From assembly GCF_964204645.1 (NCBI RefSeq), contig NC_134029.1:18656950-18720949 (forward strand): a stretch of DNA of 64,000 nucleotides, written 5' to 3'. Both the position numbers and the translations under genes were made by a program. The DNA comes from Tubulanus polymorphus (taxonomy: Eukaryota > Animalia > Nemertea). This document shows positions 25,963-63,753 of this stretch, one piece after another (the stretch's first letter is position 1; each line of letters starts with the position of its first letter). The notes below the pieces were generated by a model, which was not told the DNA's origin, ran no database searches, and worked only from the letters and a program-made list of their open reading frames with translations.

Positions 25963-26658
25963 CTATATAGGTCCAACGCTATCGCCTTTCTCGCCTTTCT
26001 TCTTCGGATAGCAAGCCTTTCTTGATTTGCCATTGGTACTATTGCCATACGGCAAGCACTGAACGTCCATTCCCAGACGCTTACAACAGTCGGAATCGCT
26101 TGAACAATTAATGTTAACGCAGTCTAGTCGACAACGCTTCCGTCCCAACAATCCCTTGCACACCGCGGAATTGCCACTGCGGTCGCTACAACAGTCCGAA
26201 TTGTCACTGCATTTCGAAAAAATACGTTTGCAATCCGGTCGACGTCGACAGGTGCCGCTTTTTCCATCCCCGATGACGCAAATTGTTGCCTTACCGTCGT
26301 TAGGACAACATTCCGAATCTGTGGTACACGGTTTATCAATCGCGCTGCACTCCTTTGCCTTTGACAGCTTACACACGGCGCCACTGCCTCTTACCTTGCA
26401 TGTAGCTACCATTCCAGGGCGATCGTCTGCTGCGCAACACTGATCATTAGATTCACACGATTCGTATCTAACGCGGCATTTTGACGGCAGACAGAATTTG
26501 CTTGCATCCTTCGAATTCATGAACGGTTTTCGGCACGTCACTCCATCTCCACAACACTTGTCACCCAAAGAACAAACGCTTCTATATTCTTTGCATCCCT
26601 GCGCGCTGATGTGCGCTACTACGAAGAGCAATAAACAGCTTCTCACCAACGCAGTCAT
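25963..26658 (-). CDS. Secreted cysteine-rich protein with 5 tandem knottin/ICK-like domains
   Basis: tttcag|aaaATG context as in gene 2; signal peptide MTALVRSCLLLFVVAHISAQG; five C-C-CC-C-C units (fifth has C-x4-C); 231 aa; upstream TATATAAA and a candidate 5' UTR donor at ~26822. Confidence 0.88.
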   Translation of the reverse strand: MTALVRSCLLLFVVAHISAQGCKEYRSVCSLGDKCCGDGVTCRKPFMNSKDASKFCLPSKCRVRYESCESNDQCCAADDRPGMVATCKVRGSGAVCKLSKAKECSAIDKPCTTDSECCPNDGKATICVIGDGKSGTCRRRPDCKRIFSKCSDNSDCCSDRSGNSAVCKGLLGRKRCRLDCVNINCSSDSDCCKRLGMDVQCLPYGNSTNGKSRKACYPKKKGEKGDSVGPI

Positions 26659-27007
26659 TTTCTGAAATAAGAAGGACGAACAATGTTAGTAACTTTGTCG
26701 AATCGAGAAATAATGTTCAACTTTGAGAGGAATAGTTCAACTTAACGAACATGAATTGAATATTCGAAAGATCCATTACTGATTCTATGTCCATATTCAG
26801 TAATTTCCATGATATCACATACCATATGTTTCTCAAGCCGATGTCACCCAGGGAATGTCGTGAATGCAACGGGTTTATATATATATATATACATCGTAAA
26901 CAAAGGAGCATTCATGCTTATCAGCATTTCGCGTAAAGCCGTAATATGCTTTAAACGATTGTGTAGTTGCAGTGAACGAGGACAATCTTTCTTTTGACTA
27001 GAATATC

Positions 27008-27801
27008 AGTAATAGGGGTAATGGGCTTTCAAGCCAAAGGTCGAACGGTCGAGCTCATTAAAAAACAAAACATTAAAAGTAATTTAAAACTATAATATAT
27101 TTTCATAACCGTGTGTATTTTATATTATAACTAAATATTTATTCTAAGATATCAATAATTTAAATTTAAAAAGCATATTGTATTAAATCAATTGGTCGCT
27201 CCACTTCGCTACCGCTCCGCTCCGCGACCAATTGATTTATTTACAATACACAAATTCATATAATCAAATATATTTTAATAATGATAATTATTCTATTATT
27301 CAACTGAAATACACACGGTTATGAAAATATATTATAGTTTTAAATTACTTTTAATGTTTTGTTTTTTAATGAGCTCGACCATTCAACCTTTAACCTGAAA
27401 GCCCATTACCCCTATTACTCTTAAAATAATCATGTACATGAATAACATTTAAATTGACAGATTATTCAATATAAAAGTATATATTTACAACATTATTTCA
27501 ATATTCATATTTGTGTGAGTTAGATTTTAAACATTAAAAGTGTTAGTAAAGTGTGATTGAAATAATACATGATATAAATCATTGAACTTCTAAAATCAAT
27601 ATAGTAAAAAAATATGTATAATAAATGGAACCAGAACAACCACAAATTATCAATATTACCAATAAGGGTAAAAAAAATATTTTAAAGCGTAAGGTTTCAG
27701 CGAACTCTAACTCTTTTTGAATTTTTACCTATTTTAATAAAAATTTGATATATAAATGTGCACAAGATTAATTAAAGTTCCCGCGAAAGACATGAGTAAT
27801 A
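27008..27801 (+). repeat. Left terminal inverted repeat; outer 412 nt form a fold-back hairpin
   Basis: Arms 27008-27120 and 27307-27419 are complementary (5 mismatches); central perfect 15-bp stem 27185-27199/27224-27238 with a 24-nt loop. Confidence 0.9.
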
Positions 27802-28605
27802 AATATATAAATTCAATATTATATTATTTAACTGTTAACAATAATTTAGCAGATATTTCAGGAGTAAATATAAATAGGTATTATAAATCTGAAAATAATG
27901 AATTAATTGAAACATCAGATATATTTTGCGATAATATAATGCTATATAAAATCATGTTAGAAAAAGAAATTATAAAAGAAAATAGAACAACTTTTCTAAA
28001 CGTTAATCAGAGAAAGATAACACATTATGAAATTATAGAATGTTTTAATCAAGGAGATATTATATTGGATAACTTAGCTATAAAAGTTACACGTTTTTTA
28101 ACAATTCATGATGATAATTCAAAATCATATATATTAAGTAGAATTAATCAAGAATTAAAATTAACAGATTATATTGCTGTATTTAAAATTTCATTATGCA
28201 ATCAAAATTTAAATGAATTAATACAGAAAATGGATAATATTGAAAAATTATTAAATGAAAAAAATTACAATATATTAGATGTAGATGTGACACAAGATTT
28301 TAAAGGATCATTTAATTCAGATGAAATAAAATCAATGTTCGAAAATAGAAAATATAAAGTTCTAAAAGAATTCTCCAATGGTTGTGTTTCAGCATTACAT
28401 AAGGATGATGAAATAAAGATCTATAATAAAACAGCATGTCAATTCAAATCTCCTGGTGTAAATATAAATTTCGGTTCAAATTTAATGAGTTACATAAATT
28501 GCTATCAAGAGAGGAGAATCATTTGAAAAATCAATTGAAACAGGATTAATTAGAATTGAAATAACAAGTATTTCATATTACTCATGTCTTTCGCGGGAAC
28601 TTTAA
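27756..28605 (+). pseudogene. Rep_trans (pT181 RepC/RepD-like) replication-initiator-like gene, frameshifted and 3'-truncated
   Basis: 256-aa ORF 27756-28526 with ILDVDVTQDF and IKIYNKT; the +1 frame from 28516 continues ESFEKSIETGLIRIEIT, then runs into the right TIR. Motif order matches Rep_trans (R)xDxAxD, IRIYNK, RxE. Assignment is from remembered motifs only. Confidence 0.55.
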
Positions 28606-29368
28606 TTAATCTTGTGCACATTTATATATCAAATTTTTATTAAAATAGGTTAAAATTCAAAAAGAGTTAGAGTTCGCTGAAACCTTACGCTTTAAAATAT
28701 TTTTTTACCCTTATTGGTAATATTGATAATTTGTGGTTGTTCTGGTTCCATTTATTATACATATTTTTCTACTAAATTGATTTTAGAAGTTCAATGATTT
28801 ATATCATGTATTATTTCAATCACACTTTACTAACACTTTTAATGTTTAAAATCTAACTCACACAAATATGAATATTGAAATAATGTTGTAAATATATACT
28901 TTTATATTGAATAATCTGTCAATTTAAATGTTATTCATGTACATGATTATTTTAAGAGTAATAGGGGTAATGGGCTTTCAGGTTAAAGGTTGAATGGTCG
29001 AGCTCATTAAAAAACAAAACATTAAAAGTAATTTAAAACTATAATATATTTTCATAACCGTGTGTATTTCAGTTGAATAATAGAATAATTATTATTATTA
29101 AAATATATTTGATTATATGAATTTGTGTATTGTAAATAAATCAATTGGTCGCGGAGCGGAGCGGTAGCGAAGTGGAGCGACCAATTGATTTAATACAATA
29201 TGCTTTTTAAATTTAAATTATTGATATCTTAGAATAAATATTTAGTTATAATATAAAATACACACGGTTATGAAAATATATTATAGTTTTAAATTACTTT
29301 TAACGTTTTGTTTTTTAATGAGCTCGACCGTTCGACCTTTGGCTTGAAAGCCCATTACCCCTATTACT
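28576..29368 (-). repeat. Right terminal inverted repeat with terminal fold-back hairpin
   Basis: Reverse complement of 27008-27801; hairpin spans ~28957-29368. Confidence 0.9.
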
Positions 29369-30518
29369 AATATCAACGTCCAACGCTCCACCAGCTCTGC
29401 AATAGCCGTTACATGTTGTACTGGAACACGAAAAGCAGCCATCCACACGCCAAATACTTTTTGCCCGAAATCCAATATCTGTTGATGAATGTTTGTACTC
29501 TAGATAACACTGGACTTGAAATTTTTCATGGGAAAAAAATATTGGGAACCAAAATTCAAGAACATTCGTTTGGATTAAAGACATCAAAATCAAATCCAAA
29601 CTGGATACCAATTAATGCCACAAGAAAATAGGTTCACTGTTTTCGATAATATCATTTTAACATAAATCGTAATGTCTGGAATGACTAAATCTATGAATCT
29701 ACTTCGATATATACTAAACATAATTATAATGATCATCGTATATATTCTCGGAGAAAATTTTTGGTTACCATTCGTCATTTGAGTGCGTTGCGCTCTATTG
29801 GCATACCTCTATTGCCATTTTCAAATCAGATACACGTCGGGAAACGGCAATGGAAATTGAAAAAAATGTGTGTTATCTATCCGAAATCAAGCCTATATTC
29901 GCCGAACTGACCAAGACGTCTGAATGTCTGAGCCCTCCGACTTCGTAACAACCGGTTCAGAGTTACCCTGGTCGAATAAATAGAGTCAATTTTCAGTTTA
30001 GTTTTTGTTCACCATTCAATCAAATCACATGATTGATCAATTCAAACAAAAAGGCAAAAAGAGAATCAACAAGAAACAATAAAAAGATTTAAACAAAGCA
30101 ACAAAAAGACAAAACATATATTCACTTTATTTACAGTTGTCAACACACATCAAGTTATTATAAAATGCCGATCTAGCCTCCCCAAATCTATTACTTCTCA
30201 TTTACAGCAAGTTTTCCAACGATGCGCTAGTGCGAGAACAAGATATATCATTATTATCATTGTTGGTATGCATGTTGTTATACAACAATATCATTGCTTT
30301 TTCCAACATTTTTTACAGGCCATGTGGTGCGGTACGGAGACTGATTTTTGCGATGTTTTATCAACCGCCGATTTCTAGACACTGTGGCGCGGCGGCGGCA
30401 ACTAACTAACGAAGTCCGCTGTGCAGTCCGCATCAGCAGAGACTGTGCAGTCAACCCCAAGGTCGTTGAACCAGTTTAGATCGGTTTGGTTTCGTTTGAA
30501 GCGATTTAACGCGCAGCA

Positions 30519-33500
30519 ATGAAGAATACTCGTTCAACTGGTTATTTGTTGATGATATTCTTGATAATCTTTGCATCAAACGTTGAACGAAATGCTGTTG
30601 AAGGGATTGGTCCATTGGCACCAGCTGTAGCAGTGGGTACTGCAGCTATCACGTCGTTTTTGTTGACAAGTTACGATTCGATCAAATGTCAATTCGTCGA
30701 ATGTTGTACGAATTCGTGGATCGATGCAAATATAACTGGTGAGTTTCATGGATAAACTATTTAAATGAATGCAGTGGATATTTTACTGCACATCATCGCT
30801 GATTGGCTGATTTACACCGCATGCGCACAGAGGTGCGCGACTTAGAAAATTCAAGGAAAGTGTGGAGAAGAGTTAGAGAAAATAGAGCGGATAGAGCGAG
30901 ACTCGAACCCGGGCCAGTAAATTACTAGTGCAGCGTCTTCCCACTAGACCACTGAGCTCGCTGAGAAGCAACCGAAGGTTTTAACCATCTATACTAGTAC
31001 CTCACCTTTACCCTAATCCTATCCCTAGGGGTAAAACGGACCCTAACCCTAATCCTAACCCTCTGGGTCGTTTAGACCCTAAACCCATAGGAACCCTAAC
31101 CCTAAACCCAATAAAATGATTTTATTGTTGCTTTTATTGATTAATGCTATAATTTATAGTATTGATGGTATGGTAAAATAGCGGAAGTGTACACTTTGCG
31201 GTATACGTTTAATTATCCACTTGGTGAAATGAACGCAGTGGATATTTTACCGTATACGGCAGAGTCTTTACTTCTGCTATTTTACCGTACATCGTCGCTG
31301 ATTAGCTGATTTATGCCGCGTATCCGCACTGAGGTGCGCGACTTAGAAAATTCAAGGAAAGTATCATACCACTAGAACAACGAGCTCGCTAAAAACCAAT
31401 CGAATGTTTTAATTAGATATTGCACCTAACCTTACCCTAATCCTATCCCACGGGTAAAACGGCTGCCCGTGCAACGGTGGATTGTCTCTGCCTTAATTAG
31501 GTGAGTAATTGATGGTCAAGAGCCCCCAAATCTCTATATGTGATCCTAACACTTGCCTGTGCCAGAAGGCTTTGAACGAATTGAGAGTTCGGGCGAAAAC
31601 TTGCAAGTCACCCCTATAGCTCAAGTGGTAGAGCAATCGCCCGGCAAGCGAGAGATGGTTCGAGTCCCGGTCTCAGTGGTTGACAGATTTCGCTCATCCG
31701 CTAGTACTTCACTAATTCTTTAATCACACACATGATTATAATTAGTTACAAGCTCTACCGCTGCCCGTGCAATGGTGGGGTGTCTCTGCCTTATTTAGGT
31801 GTGTAATTAATGGTCAAGAGCCCCCAAACTTCTATCTGTGATCCTAACCCTCTGGGTCCTTTTGACCCTTAACCCATCGGAGCCCTAACCCTAAACCCAA
31901 TATAATGATTTTATTGTTACTTATTAGTTAATACTATAGTACATAGTAATGATGTACAGTAAAATAGCCCTAGCGGAAGTAAACACTTTATCGTATATGG
32001 TTGAATATCCACTTCGTAAAATGAAACAAAATTTCAGATTTGCTATTTATGATATCATCTACCGTGGCGAGTCTCGATGCCATCAGGTTTAGATCCTTGC
32101 TGTTGAGGATGTACCTGCACCTGCCAGTTGGCAATCCAATGAGATGCGCAAGTTCTACTTTCTGCATCACGATCGTCTTTCCCAGTTACAACTGTCTGAC
32201 ATTGTGACTGACAGAGACTATAATATAATTGCACACTATCGCCGATGTTCACATCTCAGTCCACCTAAGGCTGACCTCCGCCTTGCTTAAGGTTCTCAGT
32301 GAAATCAAATACACGTCTTTGAAAAACTAGGCAAATTATCATTCTATGGTTGCATTAGTGTATAGGTATTTCAACAATGATTGGGCCTATAAGACTTAGT
32401 TGATCATTGTCAGTTTATTCTTGAGGCAGAGAAAGAAATTATTAGAGTTAGATTGTGTCAATATTATGGATCCTAAAAGTTTTTCTATTGGCAAATGATT
32501 TAACATGTTTACCGGTAGTTTGCCAGGCAGAATTTGTAAAGCTACACTGAATATGCTTCATTTTCATCAAACCAAACCTCAAATCTTGCTGTATACATAA
32601 ACAACTTGAATTGTACAAAAATGAGAATTAAATGATTAGCTCCAGTACAAACTACATGGAAATGCAGAAACATAACCACTAGGCCTGCATCGTTAATTAA
32701 TATGGGCTTTTTGTTTCAGGGTTGTCTCGTTCATTGAACACAAGACTACACGGGCAACACCTGGTCATAGGAGCAACTCTTAAGGCAGTTAAGGTAAAAT
32801 GATTTCATAGAAGTAGATATTTTGACAATGCGGCTATTTTGCCAATGGCTCATTTTGATTTGTTACTGGCGTACATGCACCCTTCAGAGAAATTACTGTA
32901 CTTCACTAAAACAGGCTTCAAACCCACCACCTACTGTCTCAAAAAGAACTCACGAATGTCAACTATCATTATATTAGGCCTCATTCAACCAATAGGCCTG
33001 TAGCCCTTAAGTAAATCCTTTTGTTTGAGTCCCGGTCTTGGTGGTGGACTGTTCCCCGATGCCACAAACATCGATACCTTGCGACAACTGGGAGTTAGCC
33101 TTCTTTACTGCTGTCTGTGCACTAGTGGGTGAAATGAAGAAATTCCATGAAATGCCAGTTGTTCATTGGTTATTTATCCAATGGTTAAACTGAAATCAAT
33201 TTTCGAGCAACTCAGCTCTGGACACTGTGGCTTTACAACTAACTGACATTGAAATTTCTACTGCGTGTTTATTTCAGGCGCATGTTAACAATCCTGACCC
33301 GAAGAAAGCTTTGACGCTCTCGTTTCACGGGTGGACGGGAGGCGGTAAGAACTACGTCAGTCGAATGATTGCTGACCATCTGTACGTGAAAGGAATGCAA
33401 AGCAGATACGTGCACCTGTTCATTTCAACGTTACACTTTCCTCACAAAAGTGAACTAGAAACGTATAAAGTAAGTATGTCAGTTGATGCCCCCCATAATA

Positions 33501-36500
33501 TGAAGGCAGTGTCATAGAGGGCTCATGTACCAGTGAAATGTGTGAGCGCAAATTAGATACAAGCACAGATTTTAAGACTGGTATTAACTTTAACCCGGGC
33601 TAACTAACTCCAGTTCCCGGTTAATTCCAGTCTATAAAATCAGGCCCTGGGTTCTGGACTAAAAATGCATGTTTATGAATTATGTTTCCATTGCAAAAGG
33701 TCCAACAAGAATTTTTTATTTTCTATCTGACTTATATTCTGAGGGGCCCTGCAACAAAATTCAGGGGTTTGGATCCCTTGGACACCGTTCCTTTTTCAAA
33801 TGAGCAATTTTCAGTTTTTATTTGCCCACTTGGGACTTTAGTCCCAGCAGGCTATTGCGTTCACTTTTCGTCCGTCAGTCTGTCTGTCCATCCGTAGACG
33901 GAATCCTGTTATTTTGGGGAGTTTTGAAGATGCTTCAAGGTAATGTCTTGATATTTGGTTTATGCATGAATCTACCCTAGACACATCTTCAGCCCAAAAA
34001 CTGGCCCTGTCAGAATCAAGATGGCCGACTGGCAGCCATTGGTGTTCGCCAAAATCAGCACTTTTTACACGTTTTTGAACTTATGAGGGAAATTTTGAAG
34101 ACGCCTTGTTTAATTACCTTGATCTTTTGTATATATTTGATCATCTTGGTGTCATCAGTACTCATTCGTAGGTGGGAAAAAGTTTTTCGACATTTTATTG
34201 ATACCTAAGCATATTTTGTTACAACAATGAATTAGAAAGTTGTAGCTTATAACGTGTTCTATGATTTTGGTGAGTTTCAAGTTCATTGGTTTTTGTATAT
34301 GGCCACCAGGAGGCGTTTAATAATACAATATCTTAGTATTTCTATATTATATTTGTACCAACACATATTTTGTTACCACAATCAATTGCCAAATTGTAGC
34401 TCATGACATCATCTATGATTGTGGTGAGTTTTAATGAAATTAGCTATTCTATATGGTCACCAGGGGGCGTTGAATAGTAGAATAACCTAGTATTTCCTTA
34501 TTATATTGGTACCTAGGCATATTTTGTTACCATGATCATTTTGTAAAGTTGTAGTTCATGACATGTTCTATGATTGTGGTGAGTTGCAAGGTTATTGGGT
34601 TTTGAATATGGTCACCAGGGGGGGGGGTTGAATAGAAGAATAACTTAGTATTTCCATATTAAATTGGTTACGAGGCATATTTTGTTATCACAATCAATTA
34701 CAAAATCATAGCTGCTGACATGTTCTATGATTGTGGTGAGTTTCAAGGTCATTGGTTTTTGTATATGGTCACCAGGGGGCGTTGAATATTGAAATTGTTA
34801 GATTGTTGAGTATTTGAAACCACTTCCCAAGTGGGCATGGTGTCCCTGGACCCCTAGTATAAGTTAAAATATGCCAAAACTTTTCCATGCTGACTAAAAA
34901 GACTACAAGTACTAAACAAAGAATGAATATTGATAAACTGCTGTGTCGATTTATTTAGGATCAGTTGCGGGGATGGATAAAAGGGAATGTGTCGATTTGT
35001 CCACAGCAGTTGTTTATTTTTGACGAAGTCGATAAAATGCACGAATCGCTGATAGACACGATCTCGTCGTATCTCGATTATCACAAAGAAATCAACGGCG
35101 TGAACTATAGAAAATCGATATTTCTTTTTCTGAGGTAATGTTAAAAAGTGTATCTCGAAAATCATGAAATCTTAGCTAGGCAAAACCTTCTAAAACCTTA
35201 CTCTATTAAGGTCCGATGCATGTGATGCGGGAAAACATGGAAACAGGAGATAGAAACATATTTCTCTGAGTGTTTTGCTGCGTCGTCTACAAGAAACGAG
35301 AGACATGGTTTGGGAAAACAATGTTTCCAGGATAAAAAATGTTTGGCTCCATGTTTCTGTGTTTCCCTGCCTTTGGAATTGGGCAAAATTGATGGCCCCA
35401 GTTTATGATATCTTATATTTATTAGTCTAACAGAACGCAGAGATTAATCAAATAATCTTATTGAAACTGTTATGATTTGATTACTGTTTCTCTGATGATA
35501 AGATTTGGATGATTCTCAAAAACTTCTTGATTGAAAAATCTTTATCAAGTGTGGGATTATTCATTAGCTTCTACACCGAGTATAGTGAGAATACTGTTCT
35601 CAGTGTAGAAGCTAATGAATGATCCATATCGGTCTATCTGTCACGCTTGAGCTTAATTTGACCGTAACAATTTCTTAAAGTCTAATCTGCCTTCGTATTC
35701 TAATTCGTAGCAACACAGCTGGAAATGATATTTCGAATGCAGCCTTCAGTCACTGGCAGGATGGGGGCAAAAGAGAGGATATTTCATTCAAAAAAATGGA
35801 AGAGATAATTACTCTTAATTCATATAATGAAAAAGGTCAGTACTTAGTGCGACATTCTTGATAGACGTACATGTGGCGTGTTAGCTCATAGAAAATGAGA
35901 TCCCATGATTAACCCTTTCAGTGCGTCTACACAGCGATGCGGTGTATAAATCGGTGATGGATTTTGCTTGTACAAGCAGCTTGTACACTGCACTGCAGTG
36001 TATTGATGTAATTAGTTATTAGTCTTACCCCTATTGAAAGATGGCAGCACCTGTCAAACATAGTGACATATTAGTAACTAACAATACACTGCGTAGCGGT
36101 GTAGACGCACTTGAGTGGTATTCCCATTATTTAACACACTAGGTTGGAATTTTTCAAAATTATCAAATTATCTCCAGCACTATAGGGTTTTAATTAGTTA
36201 GCACTGAAAGGGTTAAGCTAAGAATAAGCTAAAAAAGATTATTGAGTTTACCCAGTAAGTAGTGATGCAGAACGTTGTGGCATTGTCAGGTGTCTACTGG
36301 GATAAACAGTTGGAAAATATGTTTTTGACAGCCCAGAGTTGATATCTTACTTAGAAAACAGATGCTGAATCAGGTGTTTATATTGCTGCTTGAATTTTGA
36401 TTCAATGCGTTTTACAGGCGGTTTGTGGCATAGTTCGTTGATTTCGAAAAATCTGATCAACGCGTTCATTCCGTTCTTGCCGCTGGAGCGTATTCACGTG

Positions 36501-36674: not shown

Positions 36675-38306
36675 GCGGATAGCAGACGTATTTTTCTAAA
36701 TAACAATCTTTATCATGTGTGAAAAAATTATCTTATTGCGATATTTGATGTATGGTAATAACCATAATTGTGGCTCCGAAATTTAGATATTTTCGTATGT
36801 GGAATTTTATGTGCACAGTAACTATAAACAAGTTCCTTTACTGCTTGTTTCGGTTAGATTCTCAATGTTTTTCATTGCTCTTTCGATGCTCTTTGGGATC
36901 AATCTACTTCCTATGGTATCAATATTTAGGTCATGAATTTAGTTATCAAAAGTAACCGTAGTATGAATCACTGGTATACAATGAATGTATAGTTCTGTAA
37001 AAATGTGTTCTTTAGTCTCAGAATTACGTTCAGGCATAGTGGGAACTCCCCTCTCTGCTGTGCTAGAAAATGAATGCATTTTTCAATGTACTACCATATG
37101 ACCTTGTATGCGTATGTACTAATTGAATGAAGTTAGTATATGGAAGATGTCGACTACTGCACTGTAACTTGTGTTTTTATTGGTAATTCGATAAGACGTA
37201 TTCAATCCATTAAGAAACCAACCAGGGGCCAGTTGCATAGTCATGGCTTATATTCAAGACCAGTCTAAGACCAACTTCGTTTTATAGCCAATCTAACACG
37301 TTGAGGCCAGTCTCAAGTTTAAAGACCACTTTTGGACCAGAGTCACGACTGCAACTGGGCTTCGGGGCCTTTAGCCTTACTGGTAATGCTTAATTATTTG
37401 AGGAATATTCTCCTTGTGCCAAATTGTTCCTTTTATGATTTTAGTTGAAGATAATAGTAAGATCAATGTGAATTTAAACACAATGTGGACCTAATACTGG
37501 GTAGACTGGGAAGTCAATGATTTAATGATATTTTCTGTTATCTGCTGCTGGAAATAAATCGAAAACAAAGTTAAGTTATTGAATCGATGAATTTTTTAGT
37601 TTTATTCTCGGGATGTTTTCCCAGATTTTCATGTCGAATTGCCTGTACAGGTAAGCATCAAGGCGTTTGGACGATCCAGTCTTAGTACAGTAAACCTCAC
37701 CCAACTTGGACCAACTAGGACTGGCAAATTTTGTCCGAGGTAAGCCAATAACCGAGTTAAGACTATGAAAATATGTTAGCAAGTCACAAAAATTATTTCA
37801 TTTTTCTCAGAGATAATCAAATGTCTACGATAGCCATGTCCGAGTAAACCAAGGTTTGCTGTAGTTTAGCAGTGATTATGAATAATCATGGCTACGTAGA
37901 TTAACAACCGAAATCTTAACCTATCTCCAGATCTTCAATTTACGAAGCAATGTTGAACTCGACAGACCATGCCGCTTTATTTGAGATAAATGGGACTAGA
38001 GACGCAATCACTACAGAACGTATGGAACATATTGCTGTAAAGGGATCACTACATGTGTAGTTTGGGCTTGCTGTTTGTAGACTGGATATTTGTAGTTTTC
38101 TCTTGAAAATAATGATTTTTTTAGATTTAGATTTAAATTTATTGCTCCAGAAAATTGTACATTTTTTGCGAGCACAGGATACATACAAAATAAACAGTTT
38201 GCAGTTATACAATAACAGTTGCTAGTCATACAATAACTAGTTATATTTACAATTGAAAAGTTATTTTGAAAAGTTCGTGTATACCAGGAACAGCGATGAG
38301 GTGAGG

Positions 38307-43078: not shown

Positions 43079-45510
43079 GCAGCCGAATAAGTGTTACACA
43101 ACGAGTTAATACACACTACGCAGTTAGACCACAAAACTCCGGGTTGTAATCCTTCGAGCGTGACGGTTCACCGGTCGTGCACAGGTTATATATCACCAGT
43201 ACTCAAATTTATAGCAATTTGCGACAACTTTTACGATCGAAAATAATGTACATACTCAATTTCCACGACGCTAAAACACGGTTGTACAGTAGTATCCTAT
43301 GAGTTCTCGCTACTGACCGCGTTTGGTACTGTATTTCCAACCGCTGACAGACGAGAATCGGAGTTTTTAGCAGCACTAGAAATTTCAAGAACCAGCACCC
43401 GCCATATTGAATCTATAAGATTAGGTTAGTCCTCGGGGCATAATCCAGTTACTCAATCTTGATGCTTAAAGAGTTACCAATTGAAATACAGCTACGTTTT
43501 ACTCATATTGCTAACTCTCAAAATGGCCCTTGGTTAAAGAATAATCCTTAAATTTCTTCTTAAAATGTTCATTCTATAGACACCAATCACCAAAAGATAT
43601 AAACGAATGCATTGTACATAAACTGGGATTTATTTCAACAATCATATTTATATACATGAATAATTACTCAATATACAATACGCTCATTATTGAGCTATAA
43701 GGTCGGATAAATAGAAATCTATTTCACGTCAATCGAGCGCTGCACAGTTGATCAACAATCAAGAATGATCGAGCAGTTGATCACAACAATCACGAATGAT
43801 CGAGCACAGTTGATCAACAAAAAAGAATGACTAGAGAAATTTCAAGCTCGAATGAGTTAAATATACATTGTATATTCCTTCCATAACCATTTGTAGAGGT
43901 GTCAAACTTGGCACATTTTTATGGAAATCGTCATTAAGATCTCAAAACTGTGTACATTGTTTGGCCCTATCTGGGGATGCAGAATACATTTGAACTACAT
44001 AGCCTCCAAATTTTGACATTTCCCCGAAAAAGTAATCTAAAACACGGCATTATCTATTATGCTGTAATATAATCATCAGATCATCGGGAAATTTTCTAAA
44101 ATGGCCTTTGAAAAGAAATGATGCATAATGCTTTCTACGAAAGACTACGTATGATATTTCATAGATTTTCATAAATTTTGTCCGAGGTAAGCCAATAACC
44201 GAGTTAAGACTATGAAAATATGTTAGCAAGTCACAAAAATTATTTCATTTTTCTCAGAGATAATCAAATGTCTACGATAGCCATGTCCGAGTAAACCAAG
44301 GTTTGCTGTAGTTTAGCAGTGATTATGAATAATCATGGCTACGTAGATTAACAACCGAAATCTTAACCTATCTCCAGATCTTCAATTTACGAAGCAATGT
44401 TGAACTCGACAGACCATGCCGCTTTATTTGAGATAAATGGGACTAGAGACGCAATCACTACAGAACGTATGGAACATATTGCTGTAAAGGGATCACTACA
44501 TGTGTAGTTTGGGCTTGCTGTTTGTAGACTGGATATTTGTAGTTTTCTCTTGAAAATAATGGTTAGTCCTCGGGGCATAATCCAGTTACTCAATCTTGAT
44601 GCTTAAAGAGTTACCAATTGAAATACAGCTACGTTTTACTCATATTGCTAACTCTCAAAATGGCCCTTGGTTAAAGAATAATCCTTAAATTTCTTCTAAA
44701 AATGTTCATTCTATAGACACCAATCACCAAAAGATATAAACGAATGCATTGTACATAAACTGGGATTTATTTCAACAATCATATTTATATACATGAATAA
44801 TTACTCAATATACAATACGCTCATTATTGAGCTATAAGGTCGGATAAATAGAAATCTATTTCACGTCAATCGAGCGCTGCACAGTTGATCAACAATCAAG
44901 AATGATCGAGCAGTTGATCACAACAATCACGAATGATCGAGCACAGTTGATCAACAAAAAAGAATGACTAGAGAAATTTCAAGCTCGAATGAGTTAAATA
45001 TACATTGTATATTCCTTCCTTAACCATTTGTAGAGGTGTCAAACTTGGCACATTTTTATGGAAATCGTCATTAAGATCTCAAAACTGTGTACATTGTTTG
45101 GCCCTATCTGGGGATGCAGAATACATTTGAACTACATAGCCTCCTAATTTTGACATTTCCCCGAAAAAGTAATCTAAAACACGGCATTATCTATTATGCT
45201 GTAATATAATCATCAGATCATCGGGAAATTTTCTAAAATGGCCTTTGAAAAGAAATGATGCATAATGCTTTCTACGAAAGACTACGTATGATATTTCATA
45301 GAACACTTCGCTATCGTAAATAATGCTGTCATGGCATGAGAACATATCAGTCGATAAGAACTCAACGATTTTAGCCACATTAGTCGATACGCACAATTCG
45401 TGTTCAACAGTTTTTATCAGCACAAATGTTCTTGTTGTAAGCACCATTATCATTAGAATATCCTGAGCAGAGTTGAGTTGTTGATTATTTAGCGAGCGCT
45501 TTTTCGTCGT

Positions 45511-63753
<18,243 letters not shown>

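Follow-up and report, generated by a model that had tools for sequence, protein, structure and literature searches.

Polintons (Mavericks) are elements of 15-20 kb with a 6-bp target duplication, AG...CT ends and long inverted repeats, and target duplications are a hallmark of staggered cuts by DDE enzymes. The Drosophila elements FB and Galileo have very long arms, with tandem subrepeats or membership of DDE superfamilies. The inverted terminal repeat (ITR) of AAV, a palindrome of ~125 nt with a GAGC Rep-binding element and a trs, works with an HUH nickase and an SF3 helicase. Helitrons and IS200/IS605 are HUH tyrosine-nuclease transposons that have neither inverted terminal repeats nor target duplication, and in IS608 imperfect hairpins are recognised on one strand only. 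The Rep_trans initiators have a catalytic domain of TBP-like fold, as described in PMC13107129. In RepDE, according to PMC4797284, the catalytic Y191 is flanked by R189 and K193, and D46, D142 and E214 are the metal-binding carboxylates. The account in PMC5703833 has a Rep dimer nick a cruciform, after which Rep remains on the 5' end. According to PMC13107129, a paper of 2026, Rep_trans nucleases had been regarded as confined to mobile elements of bacteria, an archaeal sister family being a very recent find; the same source gives Rep-Arvir (DUF7845), of archaeal viruses and plasmids, a TBP-like fold, a conserved tyrosine and a downstream DNA hairpin as origin.

Here we describe an AT-rich insertion of 2,361 bp (27008-29368), flanked by the 6-bp target duplication AATATC, in a window of 64,000 nucleotides from the nemertean Tubulanus polymorphus (GCF_964204645.1, NC_134029.1, forward strand, 18,656,950 to 18,720,949). 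On balance we lean towards the view that the 412-bp nested palindrome at each of its ends is the hairpin-forming end module of a many-copy transposon with long inverted repeats, likely bound and nicked on one strand by the element's own predicted Rep_trans-like tyrosine nuclease. The palindrome likely marks a kind of mobile DNA undescribed outside bacteria and archaea. The features, in positions of the window, are as follows.

27002-27007, no strand, left target-site duplication AATATC, by direct reading, identical to 29369-29374
27008-27419, no strand, left terminal nested palindrome: outer arm, AT-rich spacer, GC-rich stem-loop, spacer, inner arm
27008-27120, no strand, outer 113-bp arm, beginning with the terminal motif AGTAATAGGGGTAATGGGC
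27185-27238, no strand, perfect 15-bp stem with 24-nt loop, whose complement is GGAGCGGAGCGGTAGCGAAGTGGA
27307-27419, no strand, inner 113-bp arm, followed by CTTAAAAT
27008-27801, no strand, left long inverted arm of 794 bp, 99% complementary to the right arm
27756-28526, plus strand, 256-aa open reading frame (P0001), predicted N-terminal part of a Rep_trans-like, TBP-fold protein
28514-28575, plus strand, frameshift region; 5 bases absent here are present after 28514 in 16 of 20 reads of other copies
28576-29368, no strand, right long inverted arm of 793 bp, repeating 27008-27801 in inverse orientation, the first 46 nt of the ORF included
28957-29368, no strand, right terminal nested palindrome, carrying the five mismatches of the left one; its G-T strand is the plus strand
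29369-29374, no strand, right target-site duplication AATATC, by direct reading

The element termini read 5'-AG...CT-3'. By our own arithmetic the AATATC duplication, observed in the window copy only, would arise by chance at ~4e-4 given the local base composition. GC content is alike low in ORF and arms (22-26%) and 35-50% in the flanks. Rfam and tRNA scans across the window found nothing, and a look for RNA evidence listed no RNA data set. The window copy is dead, by frameshift, truncation and palindromic rearrangement, and would depend on intact copies; the window itself contains no full-length one.

The arms 27008-27120 and 27307-27419, of 113 nt each, differ at exactly five places (27032/27395, 27034/27393, 27035/27392, 27042/27385 and 27046/27381), all of them transitions and two of the five at CpG sites. 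The preliminary description, made from the letters alone, had claimed these five differences and their recurrence at both ends, and direct reading and script confirm both: the right unit, 28957-29368, has the identical five mismatches, and the six differences between the left and right long arms (27072, 27283, 27601, 27607, 27670 and 27726, by script comparison) fall elsewhere. On the plus strand the inner arm carries A, A, A, A and C at 27381, 27385, 27392, 27393 and 27395. Folded as single-stranded DNA, the left unit has no pairing at the five places in its plus strand (-128.5 kcal/mol, z -24.6), whereas in the minus strand, whose 3' end is the left terminus, all 113 positions pair if G-T is counted (-139.9 kcal/mol, z -27.0), and for neither strand did any of 100 shuffles fold as well. 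The claim that the five mismatches become G-T pairs only on the strand with its 3' end at the terminus thus holds for the window copy, and a palindrome this large is far beyond chance.

The stem (27185-27199 / 27224-27238) and its 24-nt loop TCCACTTCGCTACCGCTCCGCTCC at 27200-27223 are likewise as first described. This stem-loop, 27185-27238, is a GC island within sequence of ~24% GC, and the complementary strand of the loop region has GAGCG three times, a repeat found nowhere else in the element. The repeats had been likened to the Rep-binding element of AAV; this analogy is not supported, AAV Rep being an HUH protein unrelated to that of the element. The terminal motif AGTAATAGGGGTAATGGGC contains two TAAT(A)GGG repeats, and as a 24-mer it occurs four times in the window, exclusively at the four arm ends, with 0 expected from 100 shuffles. 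The proposed nick junction, TTAAG|AGTAATAGGGG, is present at 28952-28967, and its complement at 27409-27424.

Copies were studied through pile-ups of raw reads of the same species (a WGS library), which combine the two ends and every copy of at least 90% similarity and are not resolved per copy. Copies related to this one, their ends exactly the same but their flanks varied, are of the order of a hundred or more. Read depth is ~5x (13 flank bins, 1.9-8.3) or 7x in the flanks, ~1,000-3,000x in the unit and 23-44x in the ORF region; 144 of 6,938 placed reads fit two places. That the unit is a true element terminus is borne out by 1,584 reads (309 + 1,275) that break exactly at 27007/27008 into unlike flanks (flank agreement 0.35) and by 305 that break at 29368. 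Depth is continuous across 27419/27420, where ~1,320 reads run on into subterminal sequence, and none of the loose-end piles listed (the smallest of 208 reads) lies there, as against 1,584 at the outer end. Among the joints listed (15 of 22), none of the 15 is on opposite strands. Solo or flopped units make up at most ~13% of ends, and the nested palindrome has a fixed orientation at both ends. No molecule-end pile-up was seen at the termini in this WGS library, which is no proof against rare free forms, and no empty-site joint is among the joints listed, the flanks being only ~5x deep. Inward of 27665 most other copies no longer match this one (395 reads), and the ORF is missing from most copies. 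A short subfamily has only the outer 57 and 46 bp in common, with loose ends at 27064 and 27374 (437 and 208 reads), and the terminal 50 bp are ~2x as deep as the remainder of the unit.

How far does the G-T polarity extend beyond the window copy? In one copy, five transitions of the same-strand polarity give p = 2 x (1/2)^5 = 0.06 by our own arithmetic; in the commonest letters of the family, read from the pile-up, eight of eight mismatches are G-T on the strand with its 3' end at the terminus (p ~0.008). At four of the five mismatch places of the window the letters are kept in at least 77-85% of reads, and at three more pairs much of the family has C.A (27054/27373, G>A 83% vs <15%; 27071/27356, 78% vs 29%; 27116/27311, 55% vs 26%). 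The claim that all mismatches are G-T is therefore true of the window copy and of the commonest letters but not of every copy, since minority copies have non-wobble mismatches (A>T at 27032, 22% of reads; A>C at 27381, 23%). One minority mismatch has the opposite polarity (27057 A>G, 16%). The arms also co-vary at mirror places (27018/27409, 20/22%; 27023/27404, 29/30%; 27112/27315, 22/21%). The GC-rich stem-loop is conserved among copies: of 33 variable places in the unit (at least 15% other letters), one falls in its 54 nt (27203 A>G, 33%). The polarity is equally compatible with C-to-T change on a single exposed strand and with selection for pairing.

The only sizeable ORF of the 2,361-bp element encodes the Rep_trans-like fragment; an open frame this long occurs in none of 2,000 shuffles, whose longest frame has 142 codons. 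P0001 contains the motifs FCDNIML (D59), DVDVTQDF (D177, D181) and IKIYNK (Y223). After the frameshift the next frame reads ESFEKSIETGLIRIEITS, the R-x-E motif in the alignment with homologues, and at 28575/28576 the inverted left arm truncates the coding sequence. The internal ORF is thus a frameshifted, truncated copy of a ~700-aa protein. Homologues at 50% identity lie on contigs of 3-6 kb, one of them, of 716 aa, on a contig of 3,828 nt, and the nearest full-length relative is a single gene filling its 3.8-kb contig. We find 175 relatives at E<=1e-3. Members of the family, among them XP_065207965.1 of Planococcus citri, occur in eukaryote-type genomes including insect genomes and in giant-virus-like contigs; proteins of the family have 700-950 aa, with additional beta-rich and C-terminal repeat domains. 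None of 20 long members has a Pfam match at E<=0.01, and Pfam detects no DDE, integrase, polymerase, HUH or SF3 helicase domain in P0001-P0004 or in the 20 long relatives. On the three relatives' contigs that were read (L001, L002 and L005) there are no terminal palindromes comparable to those of the element. L001/L002, a multi-gene virus-like contig, came from a search with P0172, and L002 ends with a 104-nt inverted repeat around a small ORF; L005, the one contig found in prokaryote genome contigs with A4, has 3,575 nt and a 5'-open ORF of 1,040 aa, without inverted ends. A search of metagenome contigs with alignment A1 returned no DNA of relatives, viral contigs searched with A1, P0011, P0157 and A4 gave none, nor did phage records by tblastn; PHROGs gave 2 trivial matches in 19 proteins, and the profile against PDB sequences gave low-complexity matches only. 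The marine metagenome run X5 held only short, unrelated-looking pieces.

The AlphaFold2 model of the family protein (pLDDT 89.7, pTM 0.88; an earlier model from four sequences, at pLDDT 36, was not usable) points to the TBP-like fold of the Rep_trans superfamily. Its best Foldseek matches in the PDB are the RepDE entries 4cwc/4cwe (E 7e-4, prob 0.92-0.97), with low TM-scores to RepDE of 0.19-0.30. More than 30 TBP chains match model residues 38-278 at Z 6.9-7.7 with ~150 residues aligned, a Z that is middling by the tool's note, and RepDE, aligned over 167 residues, reaches Z 5.3, a value that the same tool's note places among those which chance arrangements give. In BFVD an Inoviridae G2P is matched (E 4.8e-5, prob 1.0), and the ESM Atlas gives only low-TM leads, to Phage_CRI and Rep_trans clusters, with none for the C-terminal part.

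Within the family D46 is invariant in 49 of 50 members, D158, K202, Y204 and K206 in 50 of 50 each and E251 in 45 of 46 ungapped rows. The motifs FxD46, D158xTxD162F, K202-I-Y204-N-K206 and R249xE251 follow the order of those of pT181 RepC (SFD46, RLD142LAFDF, R189-I-Y191-N-K193, RVE214), so that, judged from aligned motifs, the invariant D / DxTxD / RxKxYNK / RxE are colinear with RepDE D46, D142, R189-Y191-K193 and E214. The tyrosine is flanked by basic residues in K202-I-Y204-N-K206, by motif order and not by superposition, and D46, D158 and E251, colinear with the RepDE carboxylates D46, D142 and E214 and set in similar local motifs, are candidate metal ligands. Comparisons of sequence give no family link to Rep_trans: the PF02486 (Rep_trans) HMM finds none of 50 members at E<=10 (pT181 as control scores 36.5 bits, cut-off 29.6), hhalign against RepC or Rep_trans alignments is not significant in three tries (P 0.09-0.15), and an HMM of the family alignment A2 aligns with RepC in low-complexity parts only. 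With a 12-sequence Rep_trans alignment the non-significant local path of hhalign crosses DxxxDF and (K/R)IYNK in register. From model and motifs we predict that the ORF family is a Rep_trans-type DNA-nicking enzyme.

A mechanism based on nicking is plausible, given an ORF family that shares its predicted fold and its active-site motifs with the nicking enzymes of Rep_trans type. By analogy with pT181 RepC at its origin, a protein dimer would bind the end module and drive a cruciform or hairpin. The conserved tyrosine would then cut single-stranded DNA and stay linked to the 5' phosphate, leaving a 3'-OH. At each terminus it would be the strand ending 3' there that is exposed or folded, which would explain the one-sided C-to-T / G-T pattern, and the 6-bp duplication would arise through gap repair after two strand transfers at target positions six bases from each other. 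Going further, and as a tentative proposal, the element may stand for the first mobile class of eukaryote type that runs on a tyrosine nuclease of the TBP-fold, Rep_trans type, a transposon of ~3.8 kb with a single gene, in which strand-specific hairpins of 412 nt, with G-T pairs on the 3'-ending strand only, would be origin-like nick sites that tell the enzyme which strand to cut and a dimer would copy the element out and join it into a target staggered by 6 bp.

We think it rather unlikely, if still to be reckoned with, that the unit is an ordinary long-TIR transposon end moved in trans by a DDE-type enzyme, such as the rve integrase of a Polinton-like element, with the palindrome serving as four binding sites, the Rep_trans-like protein acting in replication or in nothing, and the polarity due to chance and CpG decay. 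The 6-bp duplication with 5'-AG...CT-3' termini matches Polinton/Maverick ends, and a target duplication is what DDE staggered cuts leave. To our knowledge, known Rep_trans and HUH nickase elements have no target duplications and no long inverted repeats, so the 6-bp duplication is more in keeping with an enzyme of DDE or integrase type. CpG sites hold two of the five mismatches, five of five gives only p = 0.06, and most copies are without the ORF. Against this, neither the element nor the 20 long relatives show a DDE, integrase or polymerase domain by Pfam, the nearest full-length relative is one gene filling a 3.8-kb contig, the ORF has the base composition of the element, and eight of eight mismatches of one polarity in the commonest letters (~0.008) are hard to obtain by chance.

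The preliminary description had favoured a terminus in the manner of parvoviruses or poxviruses, by snap-back priming of the 3' strand or a covalently closed end, resolved by a nick at TTAAG^AGTAAT, genomic copies then being integrated duplex forms. Part of this stands: the 3'-ending strand forms a 113-bp stem that is paired throughout, and one strand is special; the inner junction repeats the terminal motif, so that one enzyme could cut both; and the element encodes a predicted nickase that would remain on the 5' end as Rep does in the account of PMC5703833. The rest makes such a terminus improbable. Flip/flop orientations, which it would lead one to look for, are absent or rare, the loose-end consensus at 27008 differs from the inner flank sequence, molecule ends do not pile up at the termini, and Pfam detects neither an HUH nor a helicase domain. 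Since five to eight arm mismatches are retained across the family, one arm does not serve as template for the other in every round, and the 6-bp target duplication of the inspected copy together with about a hundred dispersed copies indicates a transposon and not a free telomere. We rejected a protelomerase-type hairpin telomere, in which the tip of the palindrome would be the end, yet the flanks begin at the outer arm, and a mitochondrial linear-plasmid insert, given the lack of polymerase genes and the presence of a target duplication. A composite of two independent 412-bp MITE copies around captured DNA, also raised at the outset, would account for the unit's own 113-bp inverted arms, for the short subfamily and for the terminal 50 bp being about twice as deep. 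It is hardly credible, as neither unit by itself is flanked by a target duplication (AATATC / CTTAAA on the left, TTTAAG / AATATC on the right) and fewer than 208 loose ends at 27419/20, where ~1,320 reads run on, face 1,584 at 27008. Nor do we give much credit, though a shade more, to the 794-bp palindromic layout of the window copy being an assembly artefact, with a copy of normal or other structure at the true locus: the element is not spanned by any Logan contig, and one contig of run X2 departs at 28576 and continues with 265 unlike letters, which a full-length copy elsewhere explains equally well, whereas contigs cover both outer junctions with unique flanks. The 412-bp unit, confirmed by reads, would be unaffected.

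If the fold and motifs of the family are a true guide, enzymes of Rep_trans type also power mobile elements in genomes of eukaryote type and are present in giant-virus-like contigs, and an enzyme family thought prokaryotic would extend into the third domain. We know of no tyrosine-nickase element with long inverted repeats, nested terminal hairpins and target duplication, and our search of open-access papers and bioRxiv found no description of such an element. It would form a transposon class of its own, new next to the DDE, tyrosine-recombinase, HUH (Helitron) and Polinton ones, and a compact one-protein system for nick-and-join integration of double-stranded DNA, with the one-sided mismatch pattern as a built-in record of the exposed strand.

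The element has what characterises class II TIR transposons, namely inverted repeats, many copies, varied flanks and, in a single copy, target duplication. It shares with Polinton/Maverick the 6-bp duplication, the 5'-AG...CT-3' ends and inverted repeats of several hundred bp, but has 2.4 kb (~3.8 kb in the contig of the nearest full relative) against 15-20 kb, and genes for polymerase B, integrase, ATPase, protease and capsid were not detected in it. With FB and Galileo it shares inverted arms of great length and a large number of derivatives that are palindromic or have lost internal sequence; unlike them, each arm starts with one nested palindrome and the gene shows no DDE domain by Pfam. 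With Helitrons and IS200/IS605 it has in common an enzyme derived, here by prediction, from a rolling-circle initiator, and IS608 is a precedent for strand-specific hairpins, whereas their enzymes have the HUH fold and their ends lack inverted terminal repeats and target duplication. Parvovirus ITRs resemble it in terminal palindromes within longer inverted repeats, a foldable 3' strand, GAGC-like repeats and an internal nickase gene (here predicted); the element differs in its 412 nt against ~125 nt, in the absence of flip/flop, in a TBP-like protein in place of HUH and SF3, in GAGCG lying in the hairpin tip ~190 nt from the proposed nick, and in having no capsid gene, dispersed copies and, in the inspected copy, a target duplication. 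Rep-Arvir, as characterised in PMC13107129, is likewise tied to Rep_trans only through the TBP-like fold and the conserved tyrosine; compared by this description, it is archaeal and has its tyrosine in KHYYM, against (K/R)-I-Y-N-K here. The Rep_trans initiators themselves (pT181 RepC, RepD/RepDE; PF02486) give no significant sequence or profile match and belong to circular DNA in bacterial plasmids, phages and ICEs, whereas the proteins described here, of 700-950 aa with extra domains, occur in eukaryote-type genomes and virus-like contigs and the element sits as linear DNA within a chromosome, bearing inverted repeats and flanked by a target duplication. What the two would have in common is the TBP-like pseudo-dimeric catalytic fold, the colinear motifs and an action, known there and predicted here, at a palindrome that exposes a loop.

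We find that the 412-bp palindrome is an integral end module of a larger element and not a free-standing MITE. The insertion is 2,361 bp long, begins AGTAAT, finishes ATTACT and lies between direct repeats of the 6-bp word AATATC, a target duplication inspected in one copy; it is 20-26% GC, whereas its flanks are 35-50%. The units form the tips of long inverted arms separated by 774 bp, and the window has the terminal 24-nt word at the four arm ends and nowhere else.

Features of the element (window positions)
27008-27801: left long inverted arm, ~794 bp, 99% complementary to the right arm
28576-29368: right long inverted arm, ~794 bp, 99% complementary to the left arm
27008-27419: left unit, imperfect palindrome of 412 bp (sequence read and comparison)
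27008-27120: outer arm of the left unit, 113 bp
27307-27419: inner arm of the left unit, 113 bp
27185-27199 and 27224-27238: perfect 15-bp stem in mid-unit, enclosing a 24-nt GC-rich loop
28957-29368: right unit, inverted, its five arm differences identical to those of the left unit
27756-28526: central ORF, 256 aa

The arms of the unit differ at five positions, all transitions, and the left and right long arms differ at six, none of them at the five palindrome mismatch places. AT-rich, poorly paired spacers separate the arms from the central stem-loop, and GAGCG occurs three times on the complement of the loop and stem foot and at no other place in the element. When the left unit is folded as single-stranded DNA, its + strand reaches -128.5 kcal/mol (z -24.6) with the five places unpaired; the - strand reaches -139.9 kcal/mol (z -27.0) with all five paired as G-T. 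At the left end it is the - strand whose 3' end forms the terminus, and at the right end it is the + strand. Direct comparison of both units and folding of both strands thus uphold the preliminary description, which had placed the same five mismatches at both ends and had them pair as G-T on the strand ending 3' at the terminus; its account of an AT-rich poorly paired region, a 15-bp stem and a GAGCG-bearing loop was correct in every detail.

Public raw reads under the same species label, mapped on the window, give a depth of ~5-7x in unique flanks, ~1,000-3,000x over the unit, where both ends and every copy at least 90% alike are pooled, and 23-44x over the ORF region; this means that element copies number on the order of a hundred or more, and those bearing the ORF a handful. 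Reads break into unlike flanks at the outer left boundary 27007/27008 (309 and 1,275 reads; flank agreement 0.35) and at the outer right boundary 29368 (305 reads). At the inner boundary 27419/27420 depth is unbroken (~1,320 reads) and no pile of loose ends reaches 208 reads, the smallest among the piles listed, and it is this continuity that makes the unit integral. Occurrence of the unit alone as a MITE with its own target duplications, considered in the preliminary description, was not borne out and is rejected: the unit has no duplication of its own, and depth runs on inward. Reversed ('flop') units would give diverse flanks at 27419, and given the lack of a large pile there they make up at most ~13% of ends; the expected flip/flop loop orientations were not found among the copies, whose orientation is fixed, and none of the 15 joints listed, out of 22, connects opposite strands in the read mapping. 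Most copies diverge from the window sequence inward of 27665/28711 (395 and 293 reads) and others carry subterminal deletions of 125-130 bp, a range of deletion derivatives that is the usual DNA-transposon picture. A short subfamily matches the unit in its outer 57 bp and 46 bp alone (27008-27064, 27374-27419; loose ends of 437 and 208 reads) and has a roughly self-complementary interior of its own.

About 350 bp away from the insertion, where GC is 45-50%, a cysteine-rich ORF of 231 aa opens with a signal-peptide-like sequence (25963-26658, - strand). The surroundings also hold dispersed ~90-nt repeats with telomere-like CCCTAA runs (31043-31133, 31459-31553, 31757-31922), and tandem arrays at 34155-34797 (~155-bp satellite, four copies, 75-85% alike) and 51166-51534 (123-bp unit, three copies, 94-96%). 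Direct repeats of 100% identity, at least 300 nt long, occur as two pairs (37726-38025 / 44173-44472 and 43424-43723 / 44561-44860) and point to recent duplication or another mobile element.

Are the mismatches peculiar to the window copy? The pile-up lists places with at least 15% other letters, its frequencies being pooled and variants unphased within single copies; so few of the mapped reads (144 of 6,938) fit two places that misplacement is of limited concern. Outer-arm places 27035, 27042 and 27046 and inner-arm places 27385, 27393 and 27395 stay below 15% variation, C stands at 27034 in 83% of reads, and A at 27392 in 80% and at 27381 in 77%. Since these letters are kept in most reads, four of the window's five mismatches are family-wide; that at 27032 is not (A 41%; G 37%, restoring the pair; T 22%). 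Much of the family has C.A at 27054/27373 (G>A 83%, opposite place unchanged), 27071/27356 (G>A 78% vs C>T 29%) and 27116/27311 (T>C 55% vs A>G 26%). By commonest letters there are eight arm mismatches, and each of them reads A/C on the + strand and hence G-T on the 3'-ending one, a polarity with a chance of 2 x (1/2)^8, ~0.008, by our own arithmetic (0.06 for the window's five). Given that each of the eight can be written as C-to-T on the 3'-ending strand, a mutation bias of a strand exposed as single-stranded DNA fits as well as selection for one strand's hairpin; whichever cause holds, the two strands of the unit are not equivalent. Random mismatch types, which the preliminary description would have counted against its hairpin, are absent from the commonest letters. 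Minority letters speak against a strict rule: transversions appear at 27032 (A>T, 22%), 27381 (A>C, 23%), 27378 (A>C, 22%), 27059 (T>A, 26%) and 27085 (T>A, 31%), and at 27057 a change in 16% of reads (A>G) has the reverse polarity. Mirror places vary at like frequency (27018/27409, 20/22%; 27023/27404, 29/30%; 27112/27315, 22/21%), which suggests that pairing, or a repeated terminal motif, is maintained. The 54-nt stem-loop holds one of 33 variable places against ~4 expected, a weak sign of constraint. At 27203, G replaces A in one third of reads, adding one more AGCG word on the complementary strand of the loop.

The length of the ORF is beyond chance at this AT content (0 of 2,000 shuffles; longest shuffled frame 142 codons). 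The window copy lacks 5 bases after 28514 that are present in 16 of 20 reads of other copies; past the frameshift the next frame reads on as ...GLIRIEITS, and the coding sequence ends at 28575, where the inverted left-arm copy starts. Frameshift and truncation make the window copy a dead palindromic deletion derivative. Three relatives at ~50% identity lie on contigs of 3-6 kb, and one relative cluster includes a 716-aa form on a contig of 3,828 nt, the size needed for a single gene and two ~0.8 kb arms. A profile search of 1.84 billion representatives returned 175 relatives at E<=1e-3, of which 54 reach E<=1e-10. Lengths of 800-950 aa are frequent among them, and one relative, from the mealybug Planococcus citri (XP_065207965.1), is annotated 'uncharacterized protein'; none of 20 long family members has any Pfam match at E<=0.01. 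The readable contigs of relatives (L001, L002, L005), incomplete or of another kind, have no such terminal palindromes. L001 is a virus-like metagenome contig (stretches 346-1494 and 2468-5263). A 382-aa ORF on it opens with a domain resembling the repeat found C-terminally in the Rep_trans-like proteins, after which comes a Cys-rich, HNH-like part; TTTATGGTAAAAT-type words stand ahead of its gene starts, and its ORF at 1619-2326 consists of 12-nt tandem repeats. On L005 (205-3573) a palindrome-like ~26-nt word of CCACCTCGTCAAATTTTTGCATAGGC type recurs at least 10 times within the relative's 1,040-aa ORF.

The protein family was aligned as 50 sequences, the four close ones and 46 of the 150 matches listed, these picked for covering most of the profile. 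AlphaFold2 on this alignment confidently modelled the first 427 residues at pLDDT 89.7 and pTM 0.88 (on four sequences, pLDDT just 36). The top solved structures in Foldseek were 4cwc/4cwe of RepDE, the Rep_trans initiator of rolling-circle replication in staphylococci (E 7e-4, probability 0.92-0.97, TM 0.19-0.30), followed by TATA-binding proteins (TBPs); VIA-align gave TBPs Z 6.9-7.7 over ~150 residues spanning model residues 38-278, and for RepDE a Z of 5.3 with 167 residues aligned. Matches in the viral models include G2P, the initiator of filamentous phages (E 4.8e-5), and several uncharacterised giant-virus proteins (770-860 aa; E 2e-5 to 4e-4), with mimivirus R327 as an example; the family may pass between viruses and animal genomes. 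Passages of PMC4797284 identify Y191 as the catalytic residue of RepDE, with R189 and K193 beside it, and D46, D142 and E214 as ligands of the metal. The equivalents in pT181 RepC are SFD46AM, RLD142LAFDF, R189-I-Y191-N-K193 and RVE214IE, and the family has, in the same order and at similar spacing, FxD46NIM (D in 49 of 50), D158xTxD162F (50 of 50), R200xK202-I-Y204-N-K206 (K, Y and K each in 50 of 50) and R249xE251 (E in 45 of 46 gap-free rows). The window ORF keeps the first three in frame and the fourth behind its frameshift. The sequence methods tried, a PF02486 HMM (0 of 50 members at E<=10) and hhalign against RepC or Rep_trans (P 0.09-0.15, no significance, although the path of a 12-sequence Rep_trans alignment crosses two motifs in register), gave no significant link. 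With fold and motifs in agreement and no significant sequence match, we class the family as probably related to Rep_trans at the level of structure and motifs, and leave it outside PF02486.

The main rival to a nickase of this kind is a long-TIR element of the ordinary sort, mobilised in trans by an enzyme of the DDE or integrase type. Polintons have a 6-bp duplication and AG...CT ends, which the present ends recall, and we hold this rival to be unlikely. The self-priming or rolling-hairpin telomere of the preliminary description is improbable: flip/flop is missing, the arm mismatches persist, the copies are dispersed and molecule ends were not found in the reads. These weaken that reading without killing it, because the copies seen were chromosomal only. 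Two minor rivals remain, an assembly artefact of this copy's layout, which we consider very improbable, and a composite of MITEs, which is scarcely credible.

How would a Rep_trans-like protein most likely move such an end? The anatomy, copy number, fixed orientation and strand polarity of the element stand as observations, and so do the modelled fold and the motifs of its protein; the steps below are drawn by analogy from pT181. In pT181, as passages of PMC5703833 describe it, a Rep dimer bends the origin into a cruciform, nicks the exposed loop and remains on the 5' phosphate. By this likeness, binding of the protein to the terminal module would come first, with four TAAT(A)GGG-containing terminal motifs and the conserved GC-rich stem-loop as candidate sites. 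Next the palindrome, extruded or folded on the strand ending 3' at the terminus, would be nicked by the predicted catalytic tyrosine. The free 3'-OH would then prime copying, or join a target in which both active sites of a dimer had made cuts staggered by 6 bases, and gap repair would yield the target duplication. The weak point of this mechanism is the target duplication itself; we know of no tyrosine-nickase element that makes one. A full-text search found no description of a eukaryotic Rep_trans-type element in the titles, abstracts and passages of open-access papers and bioRxiv preprints that it covered. Passages of PMC13107129 assign Rep_trans enzymes a TBP-like fold, exactly the fold type matched by our family. 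By the same account these enzymes were believed to exist in bacteria alone until 2026, when structural evidence of a like kind revealed a sister family in archaea.
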